From positions 37,278-101,277 of the forward strand of contig JBNMLJ010000002.1 in NCBI GenBank assembly GCA_050874785.1: 64,000 bases of DNA, written 5' to 3'. The translations under genes and the position numbers were made by a program. Origin of the DNA: Lachnospira sp. (GTDB lineage: Bacteria > Bacillota > Clostridia > Lachnospirales > Lachnospiraceae). Positions 23,176-62,514 of the stretch are shown here, one piece after another (the stretch's first letter is position 1; each line of letters begins with the position of its first letter). The notes under the pieces were generated by a model that saw only the letters and a program-made list of their open reading frames with translations, was not told the DNA's origin and made no database searches.

Positions 23176-23202
23176 TTAGCACTCCCAATTATTGAGTGCT
23201 AA
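23176..23202 (+). promoter_or_regulatory. CIRCE operator (HrcA binding site) upstream of hrcA
   Basis: Perfect TTAGCACTC-N9-GAGTGCTAA. A TTGACA -35-like hexamer lies at 23134-23139. Confidence 0.95.
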
Positions 23203-23225
23203 CAACAAAGAAAAGGAGGTATGTC

Positions 23226-24326: not shown

Positions 24327-24343
24327 AAAGGTGAGGAGATAAG

Positions 24344-24985: not shown

Positions 24986-25154
24986 TACATCAGAATATTT
25001 AGTTGATGTATAATGGTATGAGCTTTTACCAGAAGTAAAGTATGTGGACAGTTGTGATATAGAAAGAAGCCGTTTACAGGCTTAGGGCTTATCAGAACAA
25101 TACACATACTTGTAACAAATAGAATTGATATTATTAAACAGTATGTCTATATAA

Positions 25155-27062
<1,908 letters not shown>

Positions 27063-27255
27063 TTAAGTGATATATATGATTGTATCTATGATTATTGAAG
27101 GTTATAATATCAGAGTTAATGTAATTAACAATGATTAATTATGGAGTTATACAAAGACTTCTTAAGACTTGACAATTATAGATGAAATCAGAAAGGAAGT
27201 CAGGACTCATATCAGAGTACCTGACTCCTTTCGGGTATAGAAAGGCGGAACCTAT

Positions 27256-28386
27256 ATGGCAGAAAAGAGAGATTATTACGAAGTCCTTGGTGTGCCTAAG
27301 GACGCAGATGATGCAGCGATTAAAAAAGCATATAGACAGTTAGCTAAGAAGTATCACCCTGATATGAATCCGGGAGATAAAGAGGCTGAGGCTAAGTTTA
27401 AGGAAGCATCAGAAGCATATGCAGTTCTTAGTGATGCAGACAAGAGAAGACAGTATGACCAGTTCGGACACGCAGCATTTGAAGGCGGCGCAGGTGGAGC
27501 TGGCGGTGGCGGCTTTGATTTTGACTTCGGTGATATGGGCGATATATTTGGTGATATATTCGGTGGTATGTTCGGAGGCGGTTCAAGCAGCAGACGTAAC
27601 AGCAACGGACCAAGACGTGGTGCAGATATAAGAGTTAATGTAAGAATTACATTTGCTGAGTCAGTTACAGGAACTAAGAAGAAGATAGATGTAACACTTA
27701 AGGACGAATGTTCTAAGTGTCACGGAACAGGTGCAAAGCCGGGAACAAGTCCTGAAACTTGTAAGAAATGTGGCGGACGTGGACAGGTAACAGTAACACA
27801 GCAGTCATTCCTTGGAATGATGAGAAGCGTACAACCTTGCCCAGATTGTCACGGAACAGGTAAGATTGTTAAAGAAAAGTGTCCAGACTGCTATGGAACA
27901 GGTTATATAAGCAGCAAGAAGACAATTGAAGTTAATATACCAGCTGGTATTGATAATGGACAGTGTGTCCGTATTCAGGGCAAGGGCGAGCCAGGTACTA
28001 ATGGTGGTCCAAGAGGCGATTTATTAGTAGCTGTAATGATATCAGCAGATCCAGCATTTGAAAGAGATGGATATAACATTTTCTCAGATGTTGTAATAAG
28101 CTATCCTACAGCAGTTCTTGGCGGAGAAGTCAAGGTAAAGACTGTTGATGGTGAAGTTATATATGAAGTTAAGCCGGGAACAGCTTCTGGTACAAGAGTA
28201 AGGCTCAGAGGCAAAGGTATGCCAACATTAAGAAATCCTCAGACAAGAGGAGATCATTACATTACACTTATTGTTGATATTCCTACAAAGCTTAATAATG
28301 AACAGAAGGAAGCACTTATGGCATATGATAAGGCACTTACAGGAGAGGAACATAAACATCCTAAGAAGAAGGGCTTCTTTAAATAA
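27256..28386 (+). CDS. dnaJ: Molecular chaperone DnaJ
   Basis: J domain with YHPDMNPGD (the HPD motif), a G/F-rich linker and four CxxCxGxG zinc-finger repeats. Confidence 0.97.
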
Positions 28387-37842: not shown

Positions 37843-40818
37843 ATGAGTTTTGACGTAAAAAAGAAGATAGAAGAATTGAATAAATCGGACATAATAAGCG
37901 GCAGTAATGCAAGATATGATATTGTCCTTGAAGAAGAATTAAAAGATCTTAATTCAGCAGGTATTATATTAAGACATAAGAAATCAGGAGCGAGGGTTGT
38001 CGTTATATCTAATGATGATAATAATAAGGTATTTTCAATAGGTTTTAAGACACCACCATTTAACGATACAGGAATGCAGCATATAATTGAACATTCAACA
38101 TTGTGTGGTTCAAGAAAATATCCTGTTAAAGATCCATTTGTTGAACTATGCAAGGGTTCACTTAATACATTTCTTAATGCTATGACTTATCCAGACAAGA
38201 CAGTATATCCAGTGGCAAGCTGTAATGATACTGACTTTAAGAATATTATGGATGTATATATGGATGCGGTGTTCTATCCTGCAATGTATGAAAAGCCAGA
38301 GATATTTATGCAGGAAGGCTGGCATTATGAGCTTGATAATGTAGATGATGATATCAAGTATAATGGTGTTGTATTTAATGAGATGAAGGGCGCATTTTCA
38401 TCACCAGATGATGTGCTTTCAAGATATACATTTGTATCATTATTCCCGGATACTGTATACAAGAATGAATCGGGCGGTGACCCTGAGGTTATACCTACAC
38501 TTAAGTATGAGGATTTCCTTAAGTACCACAAGGAATATTATCACCCATCTAACAGCTATATATATATCTATGGCGATATGGATGTTAATGAAAGACTTGA
38601 ATATCTTGACAGGGAATATCTCTCAGATTTTGATGCCTCAGAGGTTGATATTGATGCCAATATAGAAAGACAGGCAGCATTTGACAAGCCTGTATATGAA
38701 ACAAAGCCTTATGCCATAACAGAAGATGAGCCATTGGAGGATAATACTTATCTTTCATATAATGCAGTTATTGGAACTTCTGTAGATGCCAAGCTCTATC
38801 TTGCATTCCAGATACTTGATTATGCACTGGTTATGACACCGGGAGCACCTGTTAAGCAGGCACTTTTAGATGCAGGCATAAGTACTGATGTGTATTCAAG
38901 CTATGAGACATCACTTTACCAGCCTGTATATTCAATAGTTGCCAAGAATTCTAATCTTAAGGAGCAGGATAGATTCATATCAGTTATCAATGAAACATTA
39001 GAAAAGCTTGTTAAGGACGGAATTAATGAAAGAACAATAGAAGCCGGAATTAATTATTACGAATTCAAATACAGGGAAGCAGATTATGGTCCATATCCAA
39101 AGGGACTTATGTATTACCTTACTATGATGGATAGCTGGTTATATGATGAAACAAAGCCATTTATCCATATCGAGGCAGGAGATACATTTGATGAGTTAAA
39201 GAAAGATGCCAAGAATGGATATTTTGAGAAGCTTATAAAAGAATATCTTCTTGATAACAACCACAAGTCAATTATAAGCCTTGTTCCAGAGTATGGGCTT
39301 GAGAAGGAAAAGGAACAAAAGGAAGCGGACAAGCTTGCAGAGTATAAGAGCACATTGACTAATGACGAATTAGAAGAGCTTGTTAAAAAGACAAAGGAGT
39401 TAAAGGAATATCAGGATACTCCATCAAGCCAGGAAGATCTTGAAAAGATACCAATGCTTGAGCTGTCAGATATTAAAAGAGAGCCTGCTAAGGATTATAA
39501 TGATGTTAAGAGTGCAGAAGGAATTAAGATAGTACACCATAATATATTCACTAATAAGATTGCATATATTAATCTGTCATTTGATACTAAGTGTGTTCCA
39601 GATGAACTTATACCATATATGGGATTGTTAGGCTCATCATTAAGCCTTATGGATACTAAGAATTATACTTATCCAGAGCTTACTAACGAGATTAATATTA
39701 ACTGCGGTGGTCTTGCAACAGGAACAGCTATATATAGTGATAAGGTTGATTTTAGTAAGAATACAATTGTATATGAGGTTAAGAGTAAGGCGTTATATGA
39801 GAAAGTTCCATTTGTGCTTGGTATGATGGAAGAGATTATGTATAATACCAGATTTGATGACTATAAGAGATTAAAGGAGATAATTGCAAGAATTAAATCA
39901 AGACTTGAAGCTTCTCTTATGGGACAGGGACATTCAATTGCTATGTTAGAGTGCTGTGCACAGTTCTCAGAGTCGGCTTATTACTCAGAGATATTAAGGG
40001 GTTACAAATATTATGAGTTCATTAAGAAGCTTGATGAAGAATTTGAACAGAATAAGACACAGATAGTGGATAAGCTTAATAAGCTTGTTGGATATATATT
40101 CAATAAGGATAATGTTATAGTAAGCCTTACAGCAGATGATGAAGGCTATGACTGCTTTGTTAAGGCATTGTCAGCCAAGAGCTGTAATATCAAAGATGAA
40201 CATTGTAAGACAGCGGTAAGAAGCTTTACACCAGTTAATGTAAAGACTGGATATACATCAGCATCACAGGTTCAGTATGTTGCAAGATGTGGTAATTTCG
40301 TAAAGGACGGCTATAAGTATACAGGAGCACTTAAGGTGTTAAAGGTTATATTCTCTTATGATTATCTCTGGATTAATGTAAGAGTTAAAGGCGGAGCTTA
40401 CGGCTGTATGAGTGGTTCATCAAGAAATGGTGATTTCTATATGGTATCTTACAGAGATCCTAATCTTGAAAAGACTAATGATATATATGAGGGTGCGGCT
40501 GATTATATAAGGAATTTTGATGTCAGCAGGAGAGATATGGTTAAGTTCATAATAGGAACTATAGGAGAGATAGATGCACCTCTTACGCCATCAGCTATGG
40601 GCAGCAGATCATTTACACATTATATGTGCAATTGCACACAAGATATGTTAAGAAAAGACAGGGAAGAAGTTCTTGATGCGACAGTTGAGAGTATAAGAGA
40701 GCTTGCTCCACTTATAGAATCAGCAGTTAGGCAGAATTATTTCTGCGTAGTAGGTAACCAGAAACAGGTTAATGAGGCGGCAGATTTATTTGATGAAATA
40801 AAGCCTCTTATCGGATAA
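37843..40818 (+). CDS. Insulinase-family metallopeptidase, M16C (PreP-like)
   Basis: HIIEHSTLCGSRKYPVKDPF contains the inverted zinc motif HxxEH. The ~990-aa four-domain size is typical of M16C. Confidence 0.85.
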   Translation: MSFDVKKKIEELNKSDIISGSNARYDIVLEEELKDLNSAGIILRHKKSGARVVVISNDDNNKVFSIGFKTPPFNDTGMQHIIEHSTLCGSRKYPVKDPFVELCKGSLNTFLNAMTYPDKTVYPVASCNDTDFKNIMDVYMDAVFYPAMYEKPEIFMQEGWHYELDNVDDDIKYNGVVFNEMKGAFSSPDDVLSRYTFVSLFPDTVYKNESGGDPEVIPTLKYEDFLKYHKEYYHPSNSYIYIYGDMDVNERLEYLDREYLSDFDASEVDIDANIERQAAFDKPVYETKPYAITEDEPLEDNTYLSYNAVIGTSVDAKLYLAFQILDYALVMTPGAPVKQALLDAGISTDVYSSYETSLYQPVYSIVAKNSNLKEQDRFISVINETLEKLVKDGINERTIEAGINYYEFKYREADYGPYPKGLMYYLTMMDSWLYDETKPFIHIEAGDTFDELKKDAKNGYFEKLIKEYLLDNNHKSIISLVPEYGLEKEKEQKEADKLAEYKSTLTNDELEELVKKTKELKEYQDTPSSQEDLEKIPMLELSDIKREPAKDYNDVKSAEGIKIVHHNIFTNKIAYINLSFDTKCVPDELIPYMGLLGSSLSLMDTKNYTYPELTNEININCGGLATGTAIYSDKVDFSKNTIVYEVKSKALYEKVPFVLGMMEEIMYNTRFDDYKRLKEIIARIKSRLEASLMGQGHSIAMLECCAQFSESAYYSEILRGYKYYEFIKKLDEEFEQNKTQIVDKLNKLVGYIFNKDNVIVSLTADDEGYDCFVKALSAKSCNIKDEHCKTAVRSFTPVNVKTGYTSASQVQYVARCGNFVKDGYKYTGALKVLKVIFSYDYLWINVRVKGGAYGCMSGSSRNGDFYMVSYRDPNLEKTNDIYEGAADYIRNFDVSRRDMVKFIIGTIGEIDAPLTPSAMGSRSFTHYMCNCTQDMLRKDREEVLDATVESIRELAPLIESAVRQNYFCVVGNQKQVNEAADLFDEIKPLIG

Positions 40819-45771: not shown

Positions 45772-47562
45772 ATGAAATGTGTTAAATGTGGAACAGAATA
45801 TGAGGGCAATGAGTGTCCCAGATGTAACGGACCTGTAATTAAGATTAACAGCAGTGATTATATGGCAAGGCGTAAAGCATATGAAGAAAGCCTTGCAAGA
45901 AAAGAGGCACAGAACGCTTTAAATAGTGCAGAAGAAGATGGTAATGCATTAGCTGGTGAAGCAGACCAATATGATAAAGATGGCAAGACAATACAGCAGG
46001 GGAAGCGTACAAAGAAGCGTTCGCATAAGGTAAAGAATTATGATGAAGGTGTCTTTGATATAACTAAAGTTGATTTTAATGATGTGGCTGATAAGTTAAA
46101 GGCTGGCAGTGAAAAGCTTGCCAGTAAAGCTAAAGGAAAAGCCCGGCAGGAAAAGGCTAAGGCCAGAAAAAATAATAATGCTAAGACGGATAATAATATT
46201 AAGACGGATAGCAGGATAAGACCACAGACAAAACATTCATATAAGAAAGCAGGAGTAGCTGTCGCCATTGTTATAGTGGCGATAGCTGCTATTTCATTAA
46301 TTATGGCTGTTTTGTTAAGGAAGAATTCACATATATATATGAGTGACGGAAACCGCATATATGATGTATCTTCACTTGAAAGCCAGTATATATGTGATGT
46401 TAAGGATACATTATTTGGTCTTGATGAGGTTACATTTTATACACCGGAATGGCCGGAAAATATATCTAAGGACAGTGTGATTTCAAGTGCGGCAAGTCCG
46501 GATGGCAAGTATTATGCGGCAGATGTGTATAATGATGAAGATGAGTTATATTCGTTATATGTATGGTCACAGGACGGCAGTGTGGAAGTTGTAAGCAATA
46601 TATATGCACACGAGATATATTACCTTTCAGATAAAGGCATTATTATTTACAAGGAAACAGAAACTATCAATGACTCAGGGAAGATAGGCGGACTTAAGCT
46701 GTCTATGGCAGAGATTACCAAGGATAAAAGCTCTGGAAGTCTTGTAGGAAAGACTGATACAATAGAAGCCAGTCTTACACAGGCATATGTATACAGTGAC
46801 AGCGATACAATTATAATACTTGATGGCGATAACAGGCTATATCAGTACAATTATAGTAATAAGAAGCAGACATATGTAGCAGATAATGTGGATAATATAT
46901 ATCCATTAAGTGATACAGATGGTGTGTATACTAAAGGTGCAGGACATCTGAATACATCTGACAAGGCTGATGAATATATATATAATTCACAGGACAATAA
47001 TTATATTGTTAGTGTTAAGAATGGCACAGCACAGCAGCTTGAGGGCATTAATGGTGCTAATATGACATATATTATAGACAGTAAGAATGATTACATATAC
47101 TGGGTAGGTAATAAAAAGGTGTCATATGCAAAGTATAAGGACGGCACAGTGTCAGATAAGAAAGAGCTTGACAGCATAGGAAATATGCAGAATATAGTAT
47201 TCTTAAAAGCTTCAGGTGAGCTTGTATACATCAATGCAGATGCAAAGCTTATCAATGCAGTGAAGGGTGAGAAGACTGTTATTGCAGAGAATGTGAAGGA
47301 CGGAAGCTTATCACTTATTAATAATACCAAGGAGTCTGTTACTTATATAGATAGTGACGGACAGTATTATTTAAAGACACCATCAGCAAAGAAAGTGCTT
47401 ATGGGAAATGTTACAGATACAGTTAATACATCTGATACAAGTCTTTATAGAAAGAGATTGTATTATTATGATTCTGACAAGACATTATATTCGTGCGACT
47501 TAAAGGGTGGCTCAAAGAGCCAGATAGGAACAGTGGACAGGCTGTGGATTGGAACACATTAA
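45772..47562 (+). CDS. Zinc-ribbon / single-TM / repeat-rich extracytoplasmic protein
   Basis: N-terminal CVKCG..x..CPRCNG zinc ribbon, a Lys-rich linker, one transmembrane segment (VAVAIVIVAIAAISLIMAVLL), then ~400 aa rich in Y/D/S/T with repeated ..IYY..D.. patterns. Confidence 0.6.
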   Translation: MKCVKCGTEYEGNECPRCNGPVIKINSSDYMARRKAYEESLARKEAQNALNSAEEDGNALAGEADQYDKDGKTIQQGKRTKKRSHKVKNYDEGVFDITKVDFNDVADKLKAGSEKLASKAKGKARQEKAKARKNNNAKTDNNIKTDSRIRPQTKHSYKKAGVAVAIVIVAIAAISLIMAVLLRKNSHIYMSDGNRIYDVSSLESQYICDVKDTLFGLDEVTFYTPEWPENISKDSVISSAASPDGKYYAADVYNDEDELYSLYVWSQDGSVEVVSNIYAHEIYYLSDKGIIIYKETETINDSGKIGGLKLSMAEITKDKSSGSLVGKTDTIEASLTQAYVYSDSDTIIILDGDNRLYQYNYSNKKQTYVADNVDNIYPLSDTDGVYTKGAGHLNTSDKADEYIYNSQDNNYIVSVKNGTAQQLEGINGANMTYIIDSKNDYIYWVGNKKVSYAKYKDGTVSDKKELDSIGNMQNIVFLKASGELVYINADAKLINAVKGEKTVIAENVKDGSLSLINNTKESVTYIDSDGQYYLKTPSAKKVLMGNVTDTVNTSDTSLYRKRLYYYDSDKTLYSCDLKGGSKSQIGTVDRLWIGTH

Positions 47563-48987: not shown

Positions 48988-50310
48988 ATGGATTTATTTG
49001 ATTATATGCGAAAGACTAATCAGGAGAATGATTCTCCTCTTGCGATGAGATTAAGACCAAGAACTTTGGAAGAGGTCGTAGGACAACAGCATATTGTTGG
49101 CAGGGATAAGCTTTTATACAGGGCCATAAAGGCAGACAAATTAAGCTCGATTATATTTTATGGGCCTCCAGGAACTGGAAAGACTACATTAGCCAAGGTT
49201 ATTGCCAATACGACAAGTGCGGATTTCTGTCAGATTAATGCCACGGTAGCAGGCAAGAAAGAGATGGAAGATGTTGTAGAGAAAGCAAAAAATAATCTTG
49301 GAATGTATGGTAAGAAGACAATACTTTTCGTAGATGAGATACATAGATTTAATAAGGGACAGCAGGACTATCTTCTGCCGTTTGTGGAAGACGGAACTAT
49401 TGTGCTTGTTGGTGCAACGACAGAAAATCCATATTTTGAGGTTAATGGGGCTTTGATTTCAAGGTCCATAATATTTGAGTTAAAGCCATTGTCAAAGGAA
49501 GATATCAAAGAGATACTAAAGAGGGCTGTATACGATAAAGAAAGAGGTATGGGAAGCTATAAGGCTGATATAGATGACGAGGCTTTAGAGTTTCTTGCTG
49601 ATATAGCAAATGGTGATGCAAGAAGTGCACTTAATGCGATAGAACTTGGAATACTTACAACTGACAGGTCAGAGGACGGGCTTATACATATAGATTTAAA
49701 GACAGCAGAACAGTGTATACAAAAAAGGGCTGTCAGATATGATAAGACAGGCGATAATCATTACGATACCATATCGGCATTTATTAAAAGTATGAGGGGT
49801 TCTGACCCTGATGCGGTAAGTTATTATCTTGCAAAGATGTTATATGCAGGTGAAGATATAAAGTTTATTGCAAGAAGAATAATGATATGTGCAAGTGAAG
49901 ATGTAGGCAATGCAGACCCTAATGCATTAGTCGTTGCTACAAATGCAGCACTTGCAGTTGAGAGAATAGGTATGCCGGAGGCAAGGATAATTCTTTCACA
50001 GGCGGCGTTATATGTTGCCTGTGCGCCTAAGAGCAACGCCTGTTATATGGCAGTTGACAAGGCTATGGAGCTTGTTAAGACGACCAAGACAGCACCAGTG
50101 CCGGCACATTTGCAGGACGCACATTATAAGAGTGCTTCAAAGTTAGGACACGGCATAGGTTATAAGTATGCACACGATTATCCTAACCACTATGTGAAAC
50201 AACAGTATTTACCTGATGGACTTGAGGACGCGAAGTTCTATGAACCAACAGATAATGGATATGAAAAGCAGATAAAGACACACTTAAAAAAGATTAATTC
50301 GGAGACGTAG
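48988..50310 (+). CDS. rarA: Replication-associated recombination protein A (AAA+ ATPase)
   Basis: LRPRTLEEVVGQQHI, GPPGTGKTT and ILFVDEIHRFNK motifs, plus the MgsA C-terminal domain. Confidence 0.92.
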   Translation: MDLFDYMRKTNQENDSPLAMRLRPRTLEEVVGQQHIVGRDKLLYRAIKADKLSSIIFYGPPGTGKTTLAKVIANTTSADFCQINATVAGKKEMEDVVEKAKNNLGMYGKKTILFVDEIHRFNKGQQDYLLPFVEDGTIVLVGATTENPYFEVNGALISRSIIFELKPLSKEDIKEILKRAVYDKERGMGSYKADIDDEALEFLADIANGDARSALNAIELGILTTDRSEDGLIHIDLKTAEQCIQKRAVRYDKTGDNHYDTISAFIKSMRGSDPDAVSYYLAKMLYAGEDIKFIARRIMICASEDVGNADPNALVVATNAALAVERIGMPEARIILSQAALYVACAPKSNACYMAVDKAMELVKTTKTAPVPAHLQDAHYKSASKLGHGIGYKYAHDYPNHYVKQQYLPDGLEDAKFYEPTDNGYEKQIKTHLKKINSET

Positions 50311-50315
50311 AGCTG

Positions 50316-53300
50316 ATGAGAGAGTATATTAACAGACTTTCAAGAGGAAAGTTCAGATATGACATTCCAGATATAATACAACCTGATGATGTTATTATAG
50401 AAGAGGTTATCTGTGACACAATACATAATGCAGAATTTCATATACAGGCTGGGGATGTAATTAAGGGGGTAGTATACTCTGACAATGCCAAGGTGACAGT
50501 GCTTACACCGTCATTTGCAGGAAAAGACAGTGATATTAAGTATGTTATAGATGCAAGGGGACTTTCAGAGGGGGACAGCATAGAAGGAGAGTTTACGCTT
50601 GTTACTAATGCAGGAGAGAAAGAAGTATTATACAGCTTTACAGCAGTTAAAGAAACAGTAGATACAAGCCTTGGAAAGGCGGATAACCTGTTCCATTTTA
50701 CTAATCTTGTACAGGTTAATAAAGAAGAAGCAGTAAGCTTATACAGGTCCGATAAATTCAAAAAGATATTCTTACAGGGTGATGATGTATTAAATAATCT
50801 CTATGATGTCCTGTATGACAGGGAAAATGTATACGAGTCAATGGAGGAGTTCTTAATAGCAATTAAGAAAAAGCCGGCTCTTACTTTCAGCGTTGATAAT
50901 AATATAAGAGATTATAATATAGATGGTGCTAACGAAAAGGACAGCATAATTATAGAAAAGAACGGCTGGGGCTATATAAAGCTTGATGTAGCGTGTGAAG
51001 CACCATTTATTAAGATGAAAAGAGGAATAATAACCTCTGATGATTTCATAGGCGATGTATACGAGCTGGACTATATAATAGATGATAAGCTTCTTCACGC
51101 AGGCAATAATTATGCGTATATTATAATAAGCTCTTACAGTCATCAGGAAGTAATAGAGATTACAATAAATGGAAAAGAGATTGTTAATGACAGTGGCTTT
51201 GATGAACACAGAGAGATAAGAACTGCGAAGAGCAGGCTTACAGCAGAATATCTCCAGTTCAGAATGAAACGCATAACCAAGCAGGAATGGGTTATTAACA
51301 CTAATAAAATTCTAGACAGAGTCCGTGGTTTGAAAAAATCGGACATAATATTTGATGTGATACAGGCTGGTGTTAATTTCATATCAGGTGATGATTATAA
51401 CGGAAGCAGAATTCTTGAGAACATTAAGGACAAGGTATTAAGCGATGTTGATAATCATATTGAGTTATACAGTCTTTACCTTTATGTAAGCACTCTTGAA
51501 AGAAAAGATGCAGGATATACATCAGATGTGGCACAGATAGTTACTGAGTGTTATGAACACGGGTATGACAGCTGGGTGCTTTTGTGGATATTATTCTATA
51601 TAGACGGACAGTCTGAGAATAATAAGAGTATTAAGCTTATAAGAATAAAGGATTGCTTTAATGATGGCTGTATAAGTCCGGTTATGTATTTAGAGGCACT
51701 TAATATATATAATGCACAGCCAGAACTTTTAAGGGTGTTTAACAGATTTGAAGTTCAGGTGATAGCATTTGGCATTAAGTACAATATGATTACAGAGAAG
51801 CTTGCAAAGCAGGCGGCGGCTGTAATTGCCAATGAAAGAATTACTAATAAAGATAATATAGAGATATTAAAAAGACTTTATACAATATATGAAGAAGATG
51901 ACATATTAGAAGTATTAATATCCCATATGGTAAGGGAAGGAATAGCTGGTGAGGAAGCATTTCCATTTTATGAGAAAGCGGTTCTTAGAGGCATAAGAAT
52001 AACGAGATTGTATGAGTTCTATATGGCAAGCATAAAGAAAGATATAAAGGTGAGAATTCCAAGAATTGTCCTTTTGTATTTTACATATGACTCAGGCGTT
52101 AATTATGAATGGAAGTCCTTCTTATATGCCAATGTTGTCTATAATAAGGCGTTTTATAAGGATATATATGAGTCGTATGAGCAGATGATAGAGCTGTATC
52201 TTTATGAGCAGTTAAAGGATGGCTGTATTAATAATGATCTTATGTATCTTTACAGACAGTTCTTAAAGCCACAGCTTATCAATAATGAAACGGCAGAATA
52301 TGCGGTTAAGTTAAGATTTATGTACCGTGTAACTGCTGATTGCAGTAAAGTAAAAGCTGTTATAGTAAAATGCGGCTATATGAAAGAACCTGCAATATAT
52401 GAGATGACAGGCAATGATATATATATTCCGCTTTATACCTCTAACTGTTCTATGGCATTTATCTGCACAGACGGAGTTATAAGAAGAAACACGGTCAATT
52501 ATGAGATAGAAAAGGTATTAGAAGAACCTCTGGATATAACATTATTAGATGAGTATGACATTAAAGAACCATATATAGCTTTATTCAGGGCAGAATATTG
52601 CAGAAAGAAGCATATATATAATGCTGATACACCAGCTATATATAAGAAGGCGGCGCTGGTGGAAGGTGTTACATACGAATACAGACAGCTTATTAATTCG
52701 TGGCTTATTGAATATTATAAAGAATATTATGATGGTGAAACCTTTAATGATGAGTACAGTGACCTTATTAAAGAGGGGCTTGATATTAATACAGCGCAGG
52801 GACTTATTGAAATACTTTTAGAATACGGAATGTATTATGAGGCAAGGGAGCTTATGGAACGCTACGGCTATACAATAGTTCCAGCAGGCAAGATATTTAA
52901 GTTTATAGTGCACGAGCTTACTGCTTCGGTTAATAAAGAAAGCTATAAAGACATATTGTGTGAATATGTGTTCAGGAATCATCTGTATAATGAGCTGGTG
53001 CTTGAATATATGGTTGATAATTATAATGGTTCAGACAAGGATATGTACAGGCTGTGGAAGAGCGCATCTGATTTTGGCGTAAATGTTAAAAATCTTTCAG
53101 AGAGGGTTATCTCCCAGTATATGTTTACGCAGGATAAAGATTATTATGATAAGCTTACACAGGTATTTACCGATTATTATAATAAAGGTGCATCACAGCT
53201 GATAGCCAAAGCATATATAGCTTATAATTCATTTTTATATTTTATTAAAGGCAAAAATGTAAGTGACATAACATTTACTGTTGTAAAGGAATGTTACAAA

Positions 53301-53873
53301 GATAAGATTGGTGTTCCTGTAATATGCCTTGCCGCGTGGCTTAAAAAGGTATCAGAGAATATAAAAGAATTGAATAAACCGGACATTAAAGACGTGGCAC
53401 AGAACATTCTTGATGAATTATGTGCCAAAGAGATAATCTATGATTATTATAAACGCTTTAATAGTGTCCTTAATATACCTTATAATGCGTGCGGCGTTAC
53501 AGTACTTGAGTATTATGGCAATCCTGACAATAAAGTTGTTATTAATTATAAGGTCAATGATGCTAAGGAATATACAAGTGCAGTTATGAAATGTGATAAC
53601 TGTGGAGTATTTACACACAAACTTTCATTGTTCTATAACGACAAGGTTATATATAATTATACGATTGGAACAGACTCTAATACGAAGGAATATAACATAT
53701 TGTACGATAATCTTAATGATGGTGATAATAAGGGAAGATTTGATGCAATTAATGAATGTCTTGCAAGCGAGGAGCTAAGGGATATGGTTACATTAAAGAA
53801 GCTTATGGAAAGCTATGCAGTAGAAGATTATGTGACAAAGCAGTTATTTGTACCAGAGAATATGAGGCAGTAA
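50316..53873 (+). CDS. 1185-aa protein of unknown function (beta-rich N- and C-terminal modules, long helical-repeat centre)
   Basis: Long uninterrupted ORF starting 6 nt after rarA. I see no Walker, metalloprotease or nuclease motif. The N-terminal ~290 aa and C-terminal ~120 aa look beta-rich; residues ~300-1050 look like alpha-helical repeats. Confidence 0.7.
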   Translation: MREYINRLSRGKFRYDIPDIIQPDDVIIEEVICDTIHNAEFHIQAGDVIKGVVYSDNAKVTVLTPSFAGKDSDIKYVIDARGLSEGDSIEGEFTLVTNAGEKEVLYSFTAVKETVDTSLGKADNLFHFTNLVQVNKEEAVSLYRSDKFKKIFLQGDDVLNNLYDVLYDRENVYESMEEFLIAIKKKPALTFSVDNNIRDYNIDGANEKDSIIIEKNGWGYIKLDVACEAPFIKMKRGIITSDDFIGDVYELDYIIDDKLLHAGNNYAYIIISSYSHQEVIEITINGKEIVNDSGFDEHREIRTAKSRLTAEYLQFRMKRITKQEWVINTNKILDRVRGLKKSDIIFDVIQAGVNFISGDDYNGSRILENIKDKVLSDVDNHIELYSLYLYVSTLERKDAGYTSDVAQIVTECYEHGYDSWVLLWILFYIDGQSENNKSIKLIRIKDCFNDGCISPVMYLEALNIYNAQPELLRVFNRFEVQVIAFGIKYNMITEKLAKQAAAVIANERITNKDNIEILKRLYTIYEEDDILEVLISHMVREGIAGEEAFPFYEKAVLRGIRITRLYEFYMASIKKDIKVRIPRIVLLYFTYDSGVNYEWKSFLYANVVYNKAFYKDIYESYEQMIELYLYEQLKDGCINNDLMYLYRQFLKPQLINNETAEYAVKLRFMYRVTADCSKVKAVIVKCGYMKEPAIYEMTGNDIYIPLYTSNCSMAFICTDGVIRRNTVNYEIEKVLEEPLDITLLDEYDIKEPYIALFRAEYCRKKHIYNADTPAIYKKAALVEGVTYEYRQLINSWLIEYYKEYYDGETFNDEYSDLIKEGLDINTAQGLIEILLEYGMYYEARELMERYGYTIVPAGKIFKFIVHELTASVNKESYKDILCEYVFRNHLYNELVLEYMVDNYNGSDKDMYRLWKSASDFGVNVKNLSERVISQYMFTQDKDYYDKLTQVFTDYYNKGASQLIAKAYIAYNSFLYFIKGKNVSDITFTVVKECYKDKIGVPVICLAAWLKKVSENIKELNKPDIKDVAQNILDELCAKEIIYDYYKRFNSVLNIPYNACGVTVLEYYGNPDNKVVINYKVNDAKEYTSAVMKCDNCGVFTHKLSLFYNDKVIYNYTIGTDSNTKEYNILYDNLNDGDNKGRFDAINECLASEELRDMVTLKKLMESYAVEDYVTKQLFVPENMRQ

Positions 53874-53904
53874 GACTAAATTCCTGCTAAGAATGGAGAT
53901 AGTT

Positions 53905-54969
53905 ATGAACGATACAGATTTGATAATAGGAGCGGAGCTGCTTGAGGATAATATACAGATGTGTGTGTATGACAGTGAGTTAAAAGCACCAGTGGCAGCA
54001 GATACCGAAAAAGACAAAACTTTATCTGAGAATATAAAAGCTGTTATGACTAAAAGAAATGCCAGCAGTGTAGCTTCTATATGTGTTGTTGTTCCTGATT
54101 TTACCAAAGATACGCTGGAGGTTGTAAAGGAGGAGCTGTACAATGCAGGTATTGCAAAAGAGCAGTACCAGATAATAAGCAGAATAGAAAGCTTTGCATA
54201 TTATGCGTACAGCCAGAAGAAGGAGCTTTATCAGAATGGTACAGTGCTTATGGATTACAATGCTTCGGGAATTGATATATACAGATTGTACTGCAATAAG
54301 ATTGGTGATATGCAGTACATATTACAGGAGCATACAGTAAGCCAGCCAGAGGGAAGCACAATAGAAAATGCTTCACATTCAGTTACACTGTATATGACAG
54401 AATATTTTAAGAAGCACAGGGCTTCAAGTGTATATCTTACAGGTATGGGATTTGATGTGGACAGGCTTCCAGATGAATTCACTAAAGTATTAGTTACAGG
54501 AAGAAAAGCATTTGTTGGACAGAACTTATATGTAAGAGGTGCGTGCTTTGCGGCGCTGGAGTATATATACCCACAGGTGTTTGGCAATGTGTGTCTTCTT
54601 ACAGATGGCAGGATAAAGGCTGATGTTGAAACGGATATATCAGAACACGGACGTCCTATGAAGTTCAGGATTGTCAAAATGGGAACTAACTGGTATATGG
54701 CAGAAAGAACAATGGATTTTATTATTGAAGATGTGTCAGTTATCAATTTCCAGATTGTATGGCCAGACGGAAAGTACATAGAAAAGCAGGTTGATATAAG
54801 CTCTATTCCTTACAGGGAAGGAAAGACAACAAGAATATCAATGAATGTGAAGGCTTCTTCACAGGATAAATGTGTTGTCACAATAAAAGACCTTGGTTTT
54901 GGTGAGATATATCAGGCATCGGATAGTGTTATAGTTGAAGAACTGGATTTAAGTGAGGCAGATGTATGA
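53905..54969 (+). CDS. Degenerate Hsp70/actin-fold protein
   Basis: Colinear with this window's DnaK but with eroded motifs: IIGAELLEDN vs [33 protein letters not shown] vs [36 protein letters not shown] vs [25 protein letters not shown] vs [12 protein letters not shown]. The ATG at 53905 follows GGAGA; an alternative ATG lies at 53893. Confidence 0.65.
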   Translation: MNDTDLIIGAELLEDNIQMCVYDSELKAPVAADTEKDKTLSENIKAVMTKRNASSVASICVVVPDFTKDTLEVVKEELYNAGIAKEQYQIISRIESFAYYAYSQKKELYQNGTVLMDYNASGIDIYRLYCNKIGDMQYILQEHTVSQPEGSTIENASHSVTLYMTEYFKKHRASSVYLTGMGFDVDRLPDEFTKVLVTGRKAFVGQNLYVRGACFAALEYIYPQVFGNVCLLTDGRIKADVETDISEHGRPMKFRIVKMGTNWYMAERTMDFIIEDVSVINFQIVWPDGKYIEKQVDISSIPYREGKTTRISMNVKASSQDKCVVTIKDLGFGEIYQASDSVIVEELDLSEADV

Positions 54970-55787
54970 GTGCAATGATTTTGTGCAGGGGGAAGGTCGC
55001 AGACAATCCTTTATATATAAGGCAGTCAGGTATCAGATTGTATACAGAAGAAGAACTGTGTTATTATATTTATAATAATGTATATATACTTACTAATGAT
55101 TTTATCAATGATGAGCTTATATCATTTCTCAGGGATGAAGTGGGGAATACAGCACTCGCCCAGAGATTAACCACAATGAAAAGCAATAATGAGCTGTTGG
55201 CAAGTATGCTTGTCACAATACTTAAATCAGTTGATTATTATTCTTTAGAGCAGATTGAAAAGATAAGCGAGATACTTAATACGCTTGATAATCAGAATGC
55301 TTATGAAAGACTTGGATTAAGAGGGGACAGTTTTCTATCTAATGAATGCTTCTATAAGGCGGTTGACTGTTATAAGCAGATTATAGATGAATACAGTAAT
55401 GCTGCCCCTGCGGCATTCCTAGCTGGCGTGTATCACAATATGGGTGTTGCACTTGCAAGAATGTTCTTATATAATGAGGCTTCATACAGCTTTATGAAAG
55501 CATATGAGATAGGACAGCATAAGAATTCATACCAGTGTTATCTTGCGGCAAAGTGGTTTATGGATAAAGACGGAAGTGTCATTAATGAAGATGTGCCAGA
55601 GGAGGAGTATATCGTAAGAAGAAAGATAGAACAGCTTATGGATAATTCTGCTTATCAGGACGAGATTAGAAAACTTAATGACACAGAGAAGTATAAAAGT
55701 GCAGGAGATGTGGCAGGGTATCATAAGGTGTTAGATGATATTCTTACCAATTGGAAACAGGATTATTATAAATATACTGCGAGGTGA
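54966..55787 (+). CDS. TPR-like helical-repeat protein
   Basis: Its start overlaps the upstream stop (ATGA). Residues ~110-190 read like TPR units (AYERLGLRGDSF...CFYKAVDCYKQII...GVYHNMGVALARMFLYNEASYSFMKAYEI). Confidence 0.6.
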   Translation: MSAMILCRGKVADNPLYIRQSGIRLYTEEELCYYIYNNVYILTNDFINDELISFLRDEVGNTALAQRLTTMKSNNELLASMLVTILKSVDYYSLEQIEKISEILNTLDNQNAYERLGLRGDSFLSNECFYKAVDCYKQIIDEYSNAAPAAFLAGVYHNMGVALARMFLYNEASYSFMKAYEIGQHKNSYQCYLAAKWFMDKDGSVINEDVPEEEYIVRRKIEQLMDNSAYQDEIRKLNDTEKYKSAGDVAGYHKVLDDILTNWKQDYYKYTAR

Positions 55788-57286
55788 TAAAACAAGTGGG
55801 ATTATTCAAATTCTTAAAAAATAATTATGATAGTGATGAGGATTTAAAAGACCTCGAAGAACTTGTGTATGAAGATGAGAATGGATTTAAGAACAAACGC
55901 TCAATTAATGATATGATACACAGCTATCAGGTTGGTTCGGATACTGGCAGTAAGCATAATGATGATCTGGAAGAAGAATTATACAAGACGGCTGTCAGTG
56001 ATACATCAGTTAATGAATCCAAAGGGCTGACAGAAAAGACTAAGAAACAGCAGGCAGATGCGTTAAAGGAAGAAGAAAAATATGACCACCTGCTTAACAG
56101 CATACAGGCGCAGACACTTATAAGAACGGTTGATAAGGTTAATCTTGGCGGAACAGTTAATAATGATACTCAGGATAATCTTGAAGAGGTTGACACGGCA
56201 GGATTTTCGGGTTCAGAGGTTGGAAGCTTTGTTAAAAGCCAGTGTGATATTATGGAGGAAGCCTCAAGATATATAGAGAATGCCAAGGTCGAATATGACA
56301 GTGTAACTGATTATTATGAGGATATCCAGAAAATCGAGAATGCACCAGAGGACATAAAGCTTAAGCTTATGTATGCGGCAGACCGTGTTGATAATCTGTC
56401 GGTTGACAGGCGCATTTTCAAATCACCAGAGAATAAGCTTTCCAACAAAGTGTACCGTATGATGGAATCTTATGAGGAAGATTTTCCAGAGGCACTTGTA
56501 AAGCTGAGACGTGATGAAGAAGATTATAATACAGTATTAAAAAATGTAAGAATGATTAAGGGTGAGAGGTCAATGTACCGCATAGAGGCAAAAGACCTTG
56601 TAAAAAAGCAGCTTAGAATTAAGAAATATTCTGTACTTGCACTGGCACTGCTTGTAGGTGTATTTGTTATATTTCTGCTTATATCAGCAGCTTCTCCGGA
56701 TAATGAACATATAGGAACATTCATAACAGTTGTAATACTTGCACTTACTCTTTCGCTGGGGCTGTTTGCTTATCTTAAGTCAACGGAACGAAACGTATAT
56801 GTTACAGAGGTGAAGCTTAATAAAGCAACGGCACTTCTTAATAAGTACAAGATAAAGTATGTAAATGCGGTAAATGTGCTTGAATATGAATACAGCAAAT
56901 ATGCGGTAAAGAGTGCATTTGAGCTTGAGCAGAAGTTTCAGGCATATGTTGAGATGAAAGACGAACAGCGTAAAATACTTGAGATAACAAGTAATCTTAA
57001 CGAGGCAGAAGCAGAGCTTACAGATGTATTAAGACAGCTTGGCGTAATTGATACACATATATGGATAGGACAGGTTAAGGCGATACTTAATCCTAAAGAG
57101 ATGGTAGAGGTAAGACATAATCTTTCCATAAGACGCCAGAAGCTAAGAGAACAGATAGAATATAATGAATCAAGAATAGAAGATGCAAGAAATAATATTA
57201 AAAATGTGACTAAAAAGAATAAGGCACATGCTAAGGAAGCTATGCAGGTGCTTGAGATTTATGAGAAAAGACATAAGAATAATTAA
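55784..57286 (+). CDS. Membrane protein with a central TM hairpin flanked by acidic and coiled-coil regions
   Basis: The GTG start overlaps the upstream stop (GTGA). Two hydrophobic segments (VLALALLVGVFVIFLLISAA, IGTFITVVILALTLSLGLFAYL) fall at about 56630-56790. The C-terminal ~150 aa is heptad-like. Confidence 0.6.
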   Translation: MIKQVGLFKFLKNNYDSDEDLKDLEELVYEDENGFKNKRSINDMIHSYQVGSDTGSKHNDDLEEELYKTAVSDTSVNESKGLTEKTKKQQADALKEEEKYDHLLNSIQAQTLIRTVDKVNLGGTVNNDTQDNLEEVDTAGFSGSEVGSFVKSQCDIMEEASRYIENAKVEYDSVTDYYEDIQKIENAPEDIKLKLMYAADRVDNLSVDRRIFKSPENKLSNKVYRMMESYEEDFPEALVKLRRDEEDYNTVLKNVRMIKGERSMYRIEAKDLVKKQLRIKKYSVLALALLVGVFVIFLLISAASPDNEHIGTFITVVILALTLSLGLFAYLKSTERNVYVTEVKLNKATALLNKYKIKYVNAVNVLEYEYSKYAVKSAFELEQKFQAYVEMKDEQRKILEITSNLNEAEAELTDVLRQLGVIDTHIWIGQVKAILNPKEMVEVRHNLSIRRQKLREQIEYNESRIEDARNNIKNVTKKNKAHAKEAMQVLEIYEKRHKNN

Positions 57287-57382
57287 AATAATACTTGCGA
57301 AATATGAGCATTGTGTTACAATTGAGAGTGGTTTTTTGCGAAATGATTAACAATGTGTAAATAGCGCAAGAAGGAGGATAAG

Positions 57383-58402
57383 ATGAAAGAAAGACTTGAT
57401 GCAATCAAAGAAAATGCGTTGTCACAGATAAAGGCAACAGATTCTCTTGATAAGTTAAATGATATTAGAGTTGCTTTTCTTGGTAAAAAAGGCGAGCTGA
57501 CAGAAGTTTTAAAGGGTATGAAGGAGGTAGCTCCTGAGGACAGACCTAAGGTAGGACAGATTGTCAACGAAACAAGACAGGCAATTGAAGAAGTATTAGA
57601 GGCTGCCAAGAAAGACCTTGCTGCTAAGAAGAGAGAGCTTCAGATGAAGGCAGAGGTAATTGATGTAACACTTCCAGCCAAGAAAGCTGAACTTGGACAT
57701 AAACATCCTAATATGCTTGCGCGTGAAGAAATAGAAAAGATATTTATCGGAATGGGATACGAAGTTGTAGAAGGTCCAGAAGTAGAATATGATTACTACA
57801 ACTTTGAGGCACTTAATATTCCAGCTAACCATCCAGCAAAAGATGAACAGGATACATTCTATATCAATGATAAGGTCGTTCTTAGAACACAGACATCACC
57901 TGTTCAGGCAAGAGTTATGGAAAAAGGCAAGCTCCCAATAAGAATGATTTCACCTGGACGTGTATACAGAGCTGATGAGGTTGATGCAACACATTCACCT
58001 TGCTTCCATCAGGTTGAAGGTCTTGTAATTGACGAGAATATAACATTTGCTGACCTTAAGGGAACACTTGCAGAGTTCGCTAAGGAGTTATTCGGTGAAG
58101 ATACTAAGGTTAAGTTCAGGCCACATCATTTCCCATTCACAGAGCCTAGTGCCGAGATGGATGTAAGCTGCTTTAAATGTGGAGGCAAGGGCTGCCGTTT
58201 CTGTAAGGGCGAGGGCTGGATTGAAATCCTTGGCTGCGGAATGGTTCACCCACACGTATTTGAAATGTGTGGAATTGATAAAGATAAGTATACAGGTTTT
58301 GCGTTTGGTGTAGGTCTTGAAAGAGTTGCCCTTCTTAAATACGAAATCGATGATATGAGATTGTTATACGAGAATGATACAAGATTCTTAAAGCAGTTCT
58401 AA
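57383..58402 (+). CDS. pheS: Phenylalanine--tRNA ligase alpha subunit
   Basis: [15 protein letters not shown]-like region, [14 protein letters not shown] and [11 protein letters not shown]. Confidence 0.97.
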
Positions 58403-60929: not shown

Positions 60930-61961
60930 ATGGATTTACATGATTTTTATTATGATCTGCCAGAGGAGCTTATAGCACAAGACCCTCTGTCAGACCGTTC
61001 AAGCTCCAGATTAATGGTTCTTGATAAGAATACAGGAGCTATAGAACATAAGATATTCAGGGATATAACAGAATATCTTAAGCCGGGTGACTGCCTTGTA
61101 ATTAATGATACCAAGGTTATACCTGCAAGACTGATCGGTGAGAAGGAAGGAACAGGTGCTGCCATTGAAGTACTTTTATTAAAAAGACTTGAAGACAGAC
61201 AGGATACCTGGGAAGTTCTTGTTAAGCCGGGAAAGAAATGCAAGGTTGGTGCAAGGATAATATTTGGTGGCGGAAAGCTTACAGGTGAGATTATTGATAT
61301 AGTTGAGGAAGGTAACAGACTTATACAGTTTAGTTATGATGGCATATTTGAGGAAATTCTTGATGAATTAGGACAGATGCCTCTTCCACCATATATCACA
61401 CATAAGCTTGAAGATAAGAACCGATATCAGACAGTATATGCCAAGCACGAGGGTTCAGCAGCAGCACCTACGGCAGGACTGCATTTTACAAAAGAGCTGC
61501 TTAAACAGATAGAAGATATGGGAGTGAAGATTGCAAGAGTTACTCTTCACGTAGGTCTTGGAACATTCAGGCCAGTTAAGGTTGAGAATATACTTGATCA
61601 TCATATGCACTCAGAATTCTATCAGGTTGATAAAGAAGCGGCAGATATAATTAATAATACAAAGGCTAATGGTGGAAGGGTTATTGCTGTAGGAACTACA
61701 AGCACAAGAACTCTTGAATCAGTAGCTGATGAAAATGGACATATACCAGTTAAGAGTGGCTGGACAGAAATATTTATATATCCAGGTTATAAGTTTAAGG
61801 CAATAGATTGTCTTATAACCAATTTCCATCTCCCAGAATCAACTCTTGTAATGCTTGTGTCAGCACTTGCAGGAAGAGAAAATGTTCTTAATGCTTATGA
61901 AGTTGCAGTAAAAGAGCGTTACAGATTCTTTAGTTTTGGAGATGCTATGTTCATTAAGTAG
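60930..61961 (+). CDS. queA: S-adenosylmethionine:tRNA ribosyltransferase-isomerase
   Basis: Contains [39 protein letters not shown] and NFHLPESTL. Confidence 0.95.
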
Positions 61962-62009: not shown

Positions 62010-62396
62010 GTGAGTAGTACAGATGATCGCGGCTGCAAGTGTCGAAAGACCGCAGGTGAGGAAAGTCCGGGCTTCGCAGGGCAGGATGCCGGATAACGTC
62101 CGGTGGAGGTGACTCCAAGGCTAGTGCAACAGAAATATACCGCCAGTGCTTAACACTTAGTGTTAAGTCTATTGGTAAGGGTGGAAAGGCAGTGTAAGAG
62201 ACTACCGTGGTATTGGTAACAATACTGGCTATGTAAACCCCATTCGAAGCAAGACCAAATATAAAGCGATACGGCTGCCCGTCGTGCTTTTAGGTAGGTT
62301 GCTTGAGCCTGCTGGTAACAGCAGGTCTAGATAGATGATCATCAGTAGTCAGGTCAAAGCCTGACTGGACATAACCCGGCTTATAGTACTGCTCAT
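62010..62396 (+). ncRNA. rnpB: RNase P RNA (bacterial type A-like)
   Basis: GAGGAAAGTCCGGGC forms the 5' half of P4 and ACATAACCCGGCTTA the 3' half. GGTAAGGGTGGAAAGG is the conserved internal module. The P1 stem pairs GAGTAGTAC (62012-62020) with GTACTGCTC (62386-62394), and a T tract follows. Confidence 0.93.
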
Positions 62397-62514
62397 ATTT
62401 TTTTATTTAATAGGAAATTCCAATAGAATTCCATATTAAGTAAAAGGCACTATGTGCTGGTGATACGAACTCGCGTGAAGCTGTAGTTTGTCGCAAGCGA
62501 CAGCACCCGGTGCG

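Follow-up and report, generated by a model that had tools for sequence, protein, structure and literature searches.

A conserved cassette of four genes (g1-g4; positions 50316-57286, + strand) was analyzed within a 64,000-nt stretch of Lachnospira sp. DNA, the whole of which is termed the window, and the four genes were shown to be one conserved module of the order Lachnospirales. The module joins a giant scaffold protein (g1), a reduced relative of the Hsp70 chaperones (g2), a tetratricopeptide repeat (TPR) protein (g3), and a membrane hairpin protein (g4), and this structural and evolutionary identification is held with high confidence. Functionally, the cassette may encode a holding or adaptor complex that is tethered to the membrane, works without nucleotide, and descends from a multi-Hsp70 system driven by ATP, a tentative reading that we place just short of an even chance. 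Lachnospira, Roseburia, Agathobacter, and Butyrivibrio rank among the dominant gut bacteria that degrade fibre and are linked to butyrate, and a conserved 7-kb cassette in them without an assigned function is a real gap. The g1 and g2 families are catalogued in Pfam but without functional annotation, g3 and g4 have no family, and a full-text literature search returned no occurrence of DUF5717 and one of DUF5716, an incidental mention in an unrelated paper; wider literature searches brought up thematic comparators alone. The Hsp70 link of DUF5716, the g3 and g4 partners, the gene fusions, and the expanded cluster described below were worked out in the present analysis.

The four proteins of the cassette

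The g2 gene (53893-54969, +; 358 aa, probably 354 aa from the ATG at 53905) codes for a protein matching Pfam DUF5716_C (PF18980) with 257.3 bits (E 1.9e-76; cut-off 34.7 bits) over model positions 2-296 of 296. Pfam HSP70 (PF00012, cut-off 20.6 bits) gave no hit to g2 at E<=0.1, and a direct sequence search of the PDB returned nothing significant. The g2 family profile reached an Hsp70 in the PDB at best with E 0.066 (Mycoplasma DnaK), and hhalign of the family against DnaK aligned only a segment of the beta part of the substrate-binding domain (SBD-beta; g2 298-338 to DnaK 455-495) at low probability. The AlphaFold2 model of g2 had a predicted local distance difference test (pLDDT) of 92 and a predicted TM-score (pTM) of 0.88, and its top 50 Foldseek matches in the PDB were all Hsp70-containing entries, spanning the nucleotide-binding domain (NBD) and SBD-beta with probability 1.00. 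The best of these was the lidless Ssz1 of the yeast ribosome-associated complex (RAC; 6sr6, E 1.8e-11), followed by DnaK, BiP, and Sse1. TM-scores were 0.46-0.48 to docked DnaK states versus ~0.34 to undocked ones, a weak hint from the model that the domains of g2 may be permanently docked.

The homology of g2 with Hsp70 is made explicit by intermediate sequences from the Defluviitaleaceae, sequence search of g2 alone being insufficient. A Defluviitaleaceae DUF5716 member passed the HSP70 cut-off (27.1 vs 20.6 bits) and, in the reverse direction, the adjacent Hsp70 paralogue passed the DUF5716_C cut-off (37.3 vs 34.7 bits). A joint alignment displayed the stepwise decay of the three nucleotide motifs phosphate-1, phosphate-2, and adenosine from DnaK (GIDLGTTNS, DLGGGTFD, and LVGGQTR, respectively) through the Defluviitaleaceae protein P0050 (GLDFGNATS, LDFGDRGLR, and CTGGGFE) to the g2 of the window (GAELLEDNI, MDYNASGID, and LTGMGFD). 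In the same alignment lobe IIB was absent from all Lachnospiraceae members and lobe IB also from the Lachnospira clade. The alpha-helical lid (SBD-alpha) was absent as well, g2 ending 5-10 residues past the last beta strand. Retained were a reduced actin-fold NBD core (53917-54600, +; aa ~9-236, from alignment and model) and an SBD-beta-like sandwich (54622-54948, +; aa 244-352) that is the most conserved part of the protein, with the segments IPxRxxxTTRI and IKDLGFGE; the invariant residues of g2 were G264, W267, P306, R308, T313, R314, D333, G335, F336, and G337. When 1.84 billion representatives were searched exhaustively by profile, 1381 DUF5716 clusters (E<=1e-3) were obtained with a typical length of 410-430 aa, placing the Lachnospira g2 at the reduced end of its family. 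As g2 lacks the sequence, motif, and lid characteristics of an Hsp70 but has the fold, it is best called an Hsp70-derived pseudo-chaperone. Single-member DUF5716/DUF5717 fusions with unrelated Pfam domains (P0037, P0044, P0045, and P0082) were set aside as probable chimeric metagenome calls.

The g3 gene (54966-55787, +; 273 aa) codes for a family-specific N-domain (aa 1-105), three TPR-like repeats (aa ~106-210), and a C-terminal helix (WKxEYR). Taken alone, the g3 of the window fell below the curated TPR cut-off (18.5 vs 27.8 bits), and TPR Pfam models (TPR_2) matched 20 of 23 orthologues (best E 6e-7). The g3 family profile matched consensus TPR proteins in the PDB with E down to 1e-35, along with the three-TPR plus capping-helix modules of FKBP51, Hop, Tah1, SGTA, and Tom70 (E 2e-5 to 3e-3). 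The TPR character of aa ~106-210 is thus established at the level of family profiles, and the first 105 residues (ILCR..PYYI..IYS.EELCYYIYNN) gave no match and were family-specific. Nine of the best 150 DUF5716 representatives were 665-726 aa long (P0223, P0239, P0244, P0253, P0258, P0295, P0298, P0301, and P0313), and all five of those that were read carried DUF5716 (g2) followed by a complete g3 in a single chain; two fusions compared by hhalign with the g3 family scored probabilities of 99.8% and 100%, the whole of g3 being covered. These natural g2::g3 fusions are strong evidence that g2 and g3 act together, and g3 is predicted from sequence to be an obligate partner of g2; the fusions are also useful Rosetta-stone constructs for structural work. 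Docking of a g3 TPR clamp on an EEVD-like tail of g2 was rejected, as the C-termini of g2 orthologues were short and not conserved. Among the clusters P0372-P0386, one 90%-identity cluster mixed sequences of g3 (273 aa) and g4 (499 aa), two unrelated proteins; this appears to be an artefact of clustering connected with the gene overlap and not a fusion.

The scaffold gene g1 (50316-53873, +; 1185 aa) matched Pfam DUF5717_N (PF18984; 816.6 bits, 3e-245, aa 1-869) and DUF5717 (PF18983; 228.6 bits, 1e-67, aa 881-1178), passing both cut-offs (25 bits) in N-to-C order as a full-length member. Its AlphaFold2 model (41 homologues; pLDDT 86, pTM 0.58) starts with a short N-terminal helix, followed by a first beta-sandwich of Ig/ASH/BACON-like type (50370-50681, +; aa 19-122, from model strands and Foldseek), a highly conserved helical linker bundle (50688-50861, +; aa 125-182; NLFHFTNLVQ...EEA) and a second beta-sandwich (50883-51173, +; aa 190-286). 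Residues F128, A139, F148, Y163, and F179 of the linker bundle were invariant in the g1 homologue alignment. A TPR-like alpha-solenoid of ~700 aa in total comes next in the model, its first part built of paired helices (51204-52316, +; aa 297-667) and its second part (52536-53459, +; aa 741-1048) supported by the model and by TPR-scaffold matches, the two separated by a small inserted beta domain without specific match (52320-52514, +; aa 669-733). The model closes, inside the PF18983 match, with a C-terminal beta-sandwich (aa 1062-1129) and a helical hairpin (aa 1143-1177; together 53499-53846, +). Foldseek against the PDB returned only two kinds of match, ASH/Ig-type sandwiches over ~290 columns (ASH-type domains of ciliary central-pair proteins, Porphyromonas gingivalis 2qsv, and CEP192 SPD-2) and long TPR scaffolds for the solenoid (Ctr9, Ski3, IFT-A, Naa15, OGT, and the APC/C), and the viral fold library BFVD returned generic phage BACON/Ig and TPR/Sel1 folds only. 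A hydropathy scan of g1 detected no transmembrane segment. On the model, g1 is fairly described as a non-enzymatic platform or scaffold.

The last gene, g4 (55784-57286, +; 500 aa from a GTG start, or from the GTG at 55796), had no relative in Pfam, NCBIfam, or the PDB by sequence. Its orthologues (385-560 aa, after g3) and the protein of the window shared, in 15 of 15 sequences (window plus 14 orthologues), a basic N-terminal tip, a helical domain, a hydrophobic hairpin, and a C-terminal helical domain. In the window these correspond to a conserved, putatively cytoplasmic helical domain (56225-56593, +; aa 148-270, from the alignment; QCEQM..EY..VT.YLNDIQ), a two-helix transmembrane hairpin found by hydropathy scan (56612-56785, +; aa 277-334), and a C-terminal coiled-coil-like domain (56801-57268, +; aa 340-495, from the alignment; KLNKA..LLNK.KIKYVN and KEMVEVRH.L..RRQKLR). 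Basic residues flank the hairpin on both sides, from which both arms of g4 are predicted to be cytoplasmic. Heptad-like segments at residues 148-208, 227-256, 382-428, and 445-495 lay above the 99th percentile of shuffles in a crude scan. A net negatively charged N-terminal extension (55784-56188, +; aa 1-~135) was confined to the Lachnospira clade in the alignment and absent from Butyrivibrio, Roseburia, and Agathobacter orthologues. Candidate relationships of g4 to a GrpE-like or J-like element, or to the upstream membrane/coiled-coil protein of the Defluviitaleaceae, were rejected at hhalign probabilities <=2%.

The actin-like core of g2 and the layout of g4 bear on a different reading of the cassette as a cytoskeletal or envelope-morphogenesis scaffold, in which g2 would be an FtsA-like actin-fold adaptor joining g4 to a cytoplasmic platform for division, shape, or appendages. 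Hairpin and cytoplasmic coiled coils do resemble division and morphogenesis tethers in general layout, and a D,D-carboxypeptidase gene lies upstream in Lachnospira loci, but the top structural matches of g2 are all Hsp70s with SBD-beta and none is FtsA, MreB, or ParM, and its most conserved part is the beta-sandwich. The relatives of g2 that sit with GrpE and bona fide Hsp70s, the changing flanks in which no division or envelope gene recurs, and the fact that many species dispense with g4 likewise make such a scaffold highly unlikely.

Every descriptive element of an earlier note drawn from the sequence of the stretch was confirmed. Its description of g1 as beta-rich ends around helical repeats, with no enzyme motif, agrees with the model, Foldseek, and motif scan, and its derivation of g2 from the Hsp70/actin fold with eroded nucleotide loops was borne out by model, Foldseek, and alignment. 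The TPR-like g3 proved to hold genuine TPRs at the profile level. For g4, described there by an acidic N-terminus, a two-helix hairpin, and a C-terminal coiled coil, the hairpin with its coiled-coil-like flanks is conserved and the acidic part is lineage-specific. The suggestion that the members might fall into DUF-only families also holds, g1 being DUF5717_N/DUF5717 and g2 DUF5716_C. Placement in characterised families with an established common role, which would have refuted the note, did not result from Pfam, NCBIfam, PADLOC, or the literature: NCBIfam matched none of the four proteins, PADLOC models (PADLOC-DB v2) matched zero families at E<=0.1, and Walker A, HExxH, and HPD motifs were found in none of g1-g4. 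Beyond the reach of that note lay the two most informative findings, the natural g2::g3 fusions and the expanded Defluviitaleaceae cluster described below, with its active-looking Hsp70 paralogues, GrpE-domain protein, and Hsp70-VWA.

The locus and its conservation across Lachnospirales

The cassette lies between rarA/MgsA (48988-50310; Pfam MgsA_C 2e-74) and pheS (57383-58402, with pheT beyond), and the four same-strand open reading frames (ORFs), coordinates, and junctions given in the earlier note were confirmed. A spacer of 5 nt with GGAG upstream separates the TAG of rarA from the ATG of g1. The g1-g2 gap measures 19 nt to the ATG at 53893 or 31 nt to that at 53905, the latter having the better Shine-Dalgarno (GGAG 6 nt upstream) and being chosen in most public gene calls (354 aa). 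An ATGA overlap (54966-54969) joins g2 to g3 and a GTGA overlap (55784-55787) joins g3 to g4. Since g4 orthologues begin MG[IL]F, the GTG at 55796 may be the true start of g4, leaving an 8-nt gap after g3; the alternative starts of g2 and g4 leave the picture of tight packing unchanged. No intrinsic-terminator-like site was seen on the + strand from the g1 start to pheS, and co-transcription and translational coupling of g1-g4 would be expected from the spacing. The G+C content and that of third codon positions (GC3) of the cassette matched the flanking genes. In comparison with the [Lactobacillus] rogosae (genus Lachnospira) locus, 95-97% identical, the ratio of nonsynonymous to synonymous substitution (dN/dS) was 0.057 for g1, 0.142 for g2, 0.063 for g3, and 0.066 for g4, versus 0.025 for rarA and 0.017 for pheS. 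This purifying selection, with the conservation of the cassette across genera, identifies g1-g4 as genuine genes rather than ORFs that arose by chance.

In a scan that took one genome for each GTDB species, 482 species had a g2 relative, and the best 80 loci, all Lachnospiraceae-like, were examined by tblastn of the window proteins; the counts of evaluable loci below refer to these best 80 of 482. The g1 gene was directly upstream of g2 in all 75 evaluable loci and g3 directly downstream in all 74, while g4 followed g3 in 58 of 71 and was missing in 13. The loci belonged to Lachnospira, Butyrivibrio, Roseburia, Agathobacter, Clostridium porci, and others. Lack of co-conservation, named in the earlier note as refuting it, was thus not observed; the conserved core is g1-g2-g3, and g4 is accessory. 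Flanks read from ORF lists and first residues varied by genus and had no recurrent partner, and 20 loci longer than 18 kb without rarA and pheS nearby still held the cassette. In other Lachnospiraceae loci g1 diverged fast, at 25-30% identity where rarA held 70-77%. An apparent g1-g2 fusion in L030 was dismissed because a stop codon separates the genes.

The distribution of g4 is patchy even among close relatives. Four genomes resembling L. eligens (L013, L014, L016, and L020) lacked it cleanly, with pheS ~65 nt after g3 (junction at ~11950-12030 in L014, L016, and L020, and ~9925-9992 in L013), and L. eligens BIOML-A1 (L011) retained it, which looks like recent loss of the membrane partner within this species group. 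In a further clade without g4, around Clostridium porci, AT4, and VE202-15, valS was the next long ORF after g3 in most loci. A Lachnospiraceae cassette was also present on contigs L020, L031, and L014, which bear the labels Desulfovibrio piger, "uncultured Bacteroides sp.", and Evtepia sp., L014 and L020 also with Lachnospira-type rarA and pheST at 82-91% identity; the three are probably mis-binned contigs of metagenome-assembled genomes (MAGs). Among 2.9 million viral contigs (IMG/VR) one relative only was found, and a phage origin of the cassette was rejected given this single relative and the generic Ig and TPR nature of the BFVD fold matches.

The most distant g2 relative, P0050, came from a MAG of the Defluviitaleaceae, a sister family of the Lachnospiraceae in the same order Lachnospirales, and further loci of this family were found through a split DUF5717 gene, giving four distinct loci (L081/L082, L084, L085, and L086). 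Their gene cluster begins in most loci with a membrane/coiled-coil protein and continues, in four of four, with DUF5717_N (~389 aa), DUF5717 (~905-911 aa), an HSP70 (~557 aa), and a GrpE-domain protein (~630 aa). Three loci then hold DUF5716 (~516 aa), a second Hsp70 matching HSP70/DUF5716_C (~545 aa), and an HSP70-VWA protein (~690 aa), and a TPR protein (~390 aa) was seen after these in two; L085 ends with an HTH-family gene instead of the TPR gene and L086 reaches only as far as a partial DUF5716 gene. Projected on the g1 model, the split of DUF5717 falls where the second beta-sandwich ends. The TPR protein is a homologue of g3 with its specific N-domain included (hhalign 98%, E 1e-13), and the GrpE-domain protein was not homologous to g4 by hhalign. 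The three Hsp70 paralogues look canonical in keeping the GIDxGTTNS, DFGGGTxD, and GGS motifs, but stop directly behind the beta-sandwich and are thus lidless. As homologues of g1, g2, and g3 are linked in this family too, the core trio is older than the Lachnospiraceae, and sequence comparison suggests that in the other context known for it the trio is coupled to Hsp70s driven by ATP and to a domain of a nucleotide exchange factor.

That the four genes might reflect mere vertical synteny and not work together is strongly disfavoured and carries little more than negligible probability. It could draw on the fact that the observations at the locus are of spacing and order only, but the order was kept in the 20 loci with both flanks replaced, g2 and g3 occur fused, and the g1, g2, and g3 homologues are linked in another family in a differently organised cluster.

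The multi-Hsp70/GrpE/VWA cluster appears to be undescribed. It is possible, although we judge it on the doubtful side of even, that a hitherto undescribed class of specialised Hsp70 systems exists in Lachnospirales, with a full form in the Defluviitaleaceae and a reduced, ATPase-free, membrane-tethered form built on a pseudo-Hsp70 in the Lachnospiraceae. On this reading the full form may comprise three Hsp70 paralogues that lack the lid, a giant exchange factor with a GrpE domain, an Hsp70-VWA fusion, the pseudo-Hsp70, the dedicated TPR protein, and the Ig-plus-solenoid platform. The reduced form would then be the bacterial equivalent, in some of the most abundant human gut commensals, of pseudo-Hsp70 scaffolds of eukaryotes such as Ssz1/RAC. 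Small toxin-antitoxin-like or nuclease genes (NTase_sub_bind with Polbeta, Uma2, and HEPN with Polbeta) and a metallo-beta-lactamase-fold gene were inserted in or beside the Defluviitaleaceae clusters (L084 19640-20379, L081 6802-8051, and L085 2421-3156).

Proposed function and likeness to known systems

If the holding or adaptor reading is right, the Lachnospiraceae cassette would be a reduced form of the ATP-driven multi-Hsp70 machine of the Defluviitaleaceae, and would itself have ceased to cycle nucleotide. The four proteins would come together, at the cytoplasmic side of the membrane in species that have g4, the g2 beta-sandwich would clamp an extended peptide from a client or partner, g3 would bridge, and g1 would give a large binding surface. 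The complex would act as a holdase or adaptor, possibly passing clients to the housekeeping DnaK-DnaJ-GrpE system, and a canonical hrcA-grpE-dnaK-dnaJ operon lies 25 kb upstream in the window (23196-28386, +; HrcA 9e-67, GrpE 3e-42, HSP70 4e-244, DnaJ and DnaJ_C). The "surveillance machine" label that had been attached to the cassette found no direct support.

Several points weigh against this proposal. The glutamate equivalent to E171 (ESFAYYA) and the GxG of the adenosine motif are still present in g2, whose loss of nucleotide binding is deduced from motifs and deletions. Complex formation is deduced from synteny and a single fusion pair, and the pTM of the g1 model leaves its domain arrangement uncertain. 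As g4 is missing in about one fifth of loci, membrane tethering is not essential to the core function, and with no J-domain partner the hand-off to DnaK is left without an identified coupling element. Finally, the direction of change, taken here as reduction in the Lachnospiraceae, may instead have been expansion in the Defluviitaleaceae.

Among known systems, g2 is closest in layout to Ssz1 of RAC (PDB 6sr6, 5mb9, and 7x3k), also Hsp70-derived with NBD and SBD-beta and no functional lid, and is more reduced. Ssz1 is not a cycling chaperone and is permanently bound to its partner, but it retains all four lobes of the NBD and binds ATP; g2 has neither lobe IB nor lobe IIB and no phosphate loops, and identity between the two is ~12%. 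RAC is eukaryotic and ribosome-bound with a J-protein as the partner. A RAC-like co-chaperone, in which g2 would be locked to a partner as Ssz1 is to zuotin and the complex would position and regulate DnaK at a site such as the membrane or ribosome without itself holding clients, is suggested by the rank of Ssz1 in the RAC core as the best structural match, by the complete dnaK operon in the window, and by the resemblance of the g1 solenoid to ribosome-associated Naa15 among many TPR scaffolds. Loss of the dedicated active Hsp70s and the GrpE-like gene in the Lachnospiraceae would also imply that the cassette either depends on DnaK or works with no ATPase. The co-chaperone reading is nevertheless unlikely, since RAC works via a J domain and neither Pfam nor motif scan found a J domain or HPD in g1-g4, g2 orthologues have no conserved EEVD-like tail for a TPR clamp, and what g1 shares with Naa15 is a likeness common to TPR proteins in general.

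DnaK itself shares ancestry with g2 through the aligned NBD core and SBD-beta and the segments GIE.., IP.R...T.I, and KD..G, but is 628 aa long versus 358 aa, and g2 is without a Pfam HSP70 hit, intact ATP motifs, or a lid. Compared with DnaK-DnaJ-GrpE, the cassette has no J-protein or GrpE and its partners are DUF5717, a TPR protein, and a membrane hairpin; the likeness lies in the Defluviitaleaceae relatives that adjoin a GrpE-domain protein. The TPR co-chaperones Hop, FKBP51, Tah1, SGTA, and Tom70 resemble g3 in placing a three-TPR plus capping-helix module beside an Hsp70-fold partner, but g3 best matches generic consensus TPRs, has a unique 105-aa N-domain, and is linked to g2 by fusion and not by tail-docking.

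The remaining likenesses are to conflict and defence systems. According to Kaur et al. (2020; PMC7159879), HSP70 and GrpE occur in GAP1-N2 neighbourhoods of Firmicutes and Actinobacteria together with another, truncated HSP70 and with FNIII-repeat proteins to which TPR or DnaJ is fused, and the systems are defined by the GAP1-N2 protein with one or two TRAFAC GTPases bearing N-terminal zinc ribbons, often with effectors (PMC7159879). They are membrane-proximal, occur in Firmicutes, and share the Hsp70/GrpE/TPR/beta-sandwich theme, but their defining genes are absent near the cassette, where the neighbours are rarA, D,D-carboxypeptidase, pheST, and glyQS and the only nearby GTPase is housekeeping Era, 9 kb upstream. 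In CoCoNuTs, CnuD combines a degenerate Hsp70-like NBD/SBD with HEAT-like repeats, the prediction being that it binds ATP with scarcely any hydrolysis (PMC11090510), and it sits in McrBC-type restriction operons with the McrB GTPase, McrC (DUF2357), and HEPN (PMC11090510). The cassette had no McrB, DUF2357, or HEPN match in Pfam or PADLOC.

These overlapping themes raise the possibility of a conflict or defence system of the type described by Kaur et al. (2020), with Hsp70, GrpE, TPR, and beta-sandwich-repeat proteins in membrane-proximal assemblies that set a threshold for an effector response. The VWA fusion and small toxin-antitoxin-like inserts (Polbeta/NTase_sub_bind and Uma2) of the Defluviitaleaceae clusters and the rapid divergence of g1 relative to rarA would agree with such a role. 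We regard it as quite unlikely, as no GTPase, GAP1, McrB/McrC, STAND, or recognisable effector was found in or beside the cassette and PADLOC matches were zero; the locus is stable, single, set among housekeeping genes and of the same composition as its flanks, it is nearly absent from viral contigs, and a dN/dS of 0.06-0.14 gives no sign of diversifying selection. None of the features that define RAC, GAP1-N2 systems, CoCoNuTs, or any PADLOC system is present in the cassette.

Should the reduced, nucleotide-independent holding or adaptor complex prove true, it would be a clear and unusual bacterial case of an Hsp70 fold shedding nucleotide binding and becoming a structural subunit. The series from an active multi-Hsp70 cluster to an ATPase-free remnant would be open to experimental comparison, two Pfam DUFs and two unannotated families would gain a concrete functional hypothesis, and specialised non-housekeeping Hsp70 systems in Firmicutes would not be limited to conflict systems.

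Other features of the window

The spacer between g4 and pheS (57287-57382, 96 nt) contains a promoter-like TTGCGA-17-TACAAT. The pheST genes are commonly under T-box control in Firmicutes, and Rfam found no T-box leader in this spacer. Upstream of the cassette, a D,D-carboxypeptidase gene stands between rarA and a gene for a 596-aa protein (45772-47562, +) with an N-terminal zinc ribbon (CxxC...CxxC), one transmembrane segment, and a beta-rich C-terminus weakly resembling a beta-propeller; this zinc-ribbon gene recurred within the genes that precede rarA and the cassette in 19 loci, mostly of Lachnospira, and not elsewhere. A full-length TwoAYGGAY RNA motif (Rfam RF01731; 22768-22935, +) scored 115.7 bits against a gathering score of 43 bits ~260 nt upstream of hrcA, and we know of no function for this RNA family. 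Another large protein-quality-control gene, coding for a PreP-like M16C peptidase of 991 aa (37843-40818, +; M16C_assoc 1e-82, PreP_C 2e-50), was found directly upstream of era. Downstream of queA (60930-61961), a bacterial class A RNase P RNA was identified at 62011-62399 (+) with 302.6 bits.

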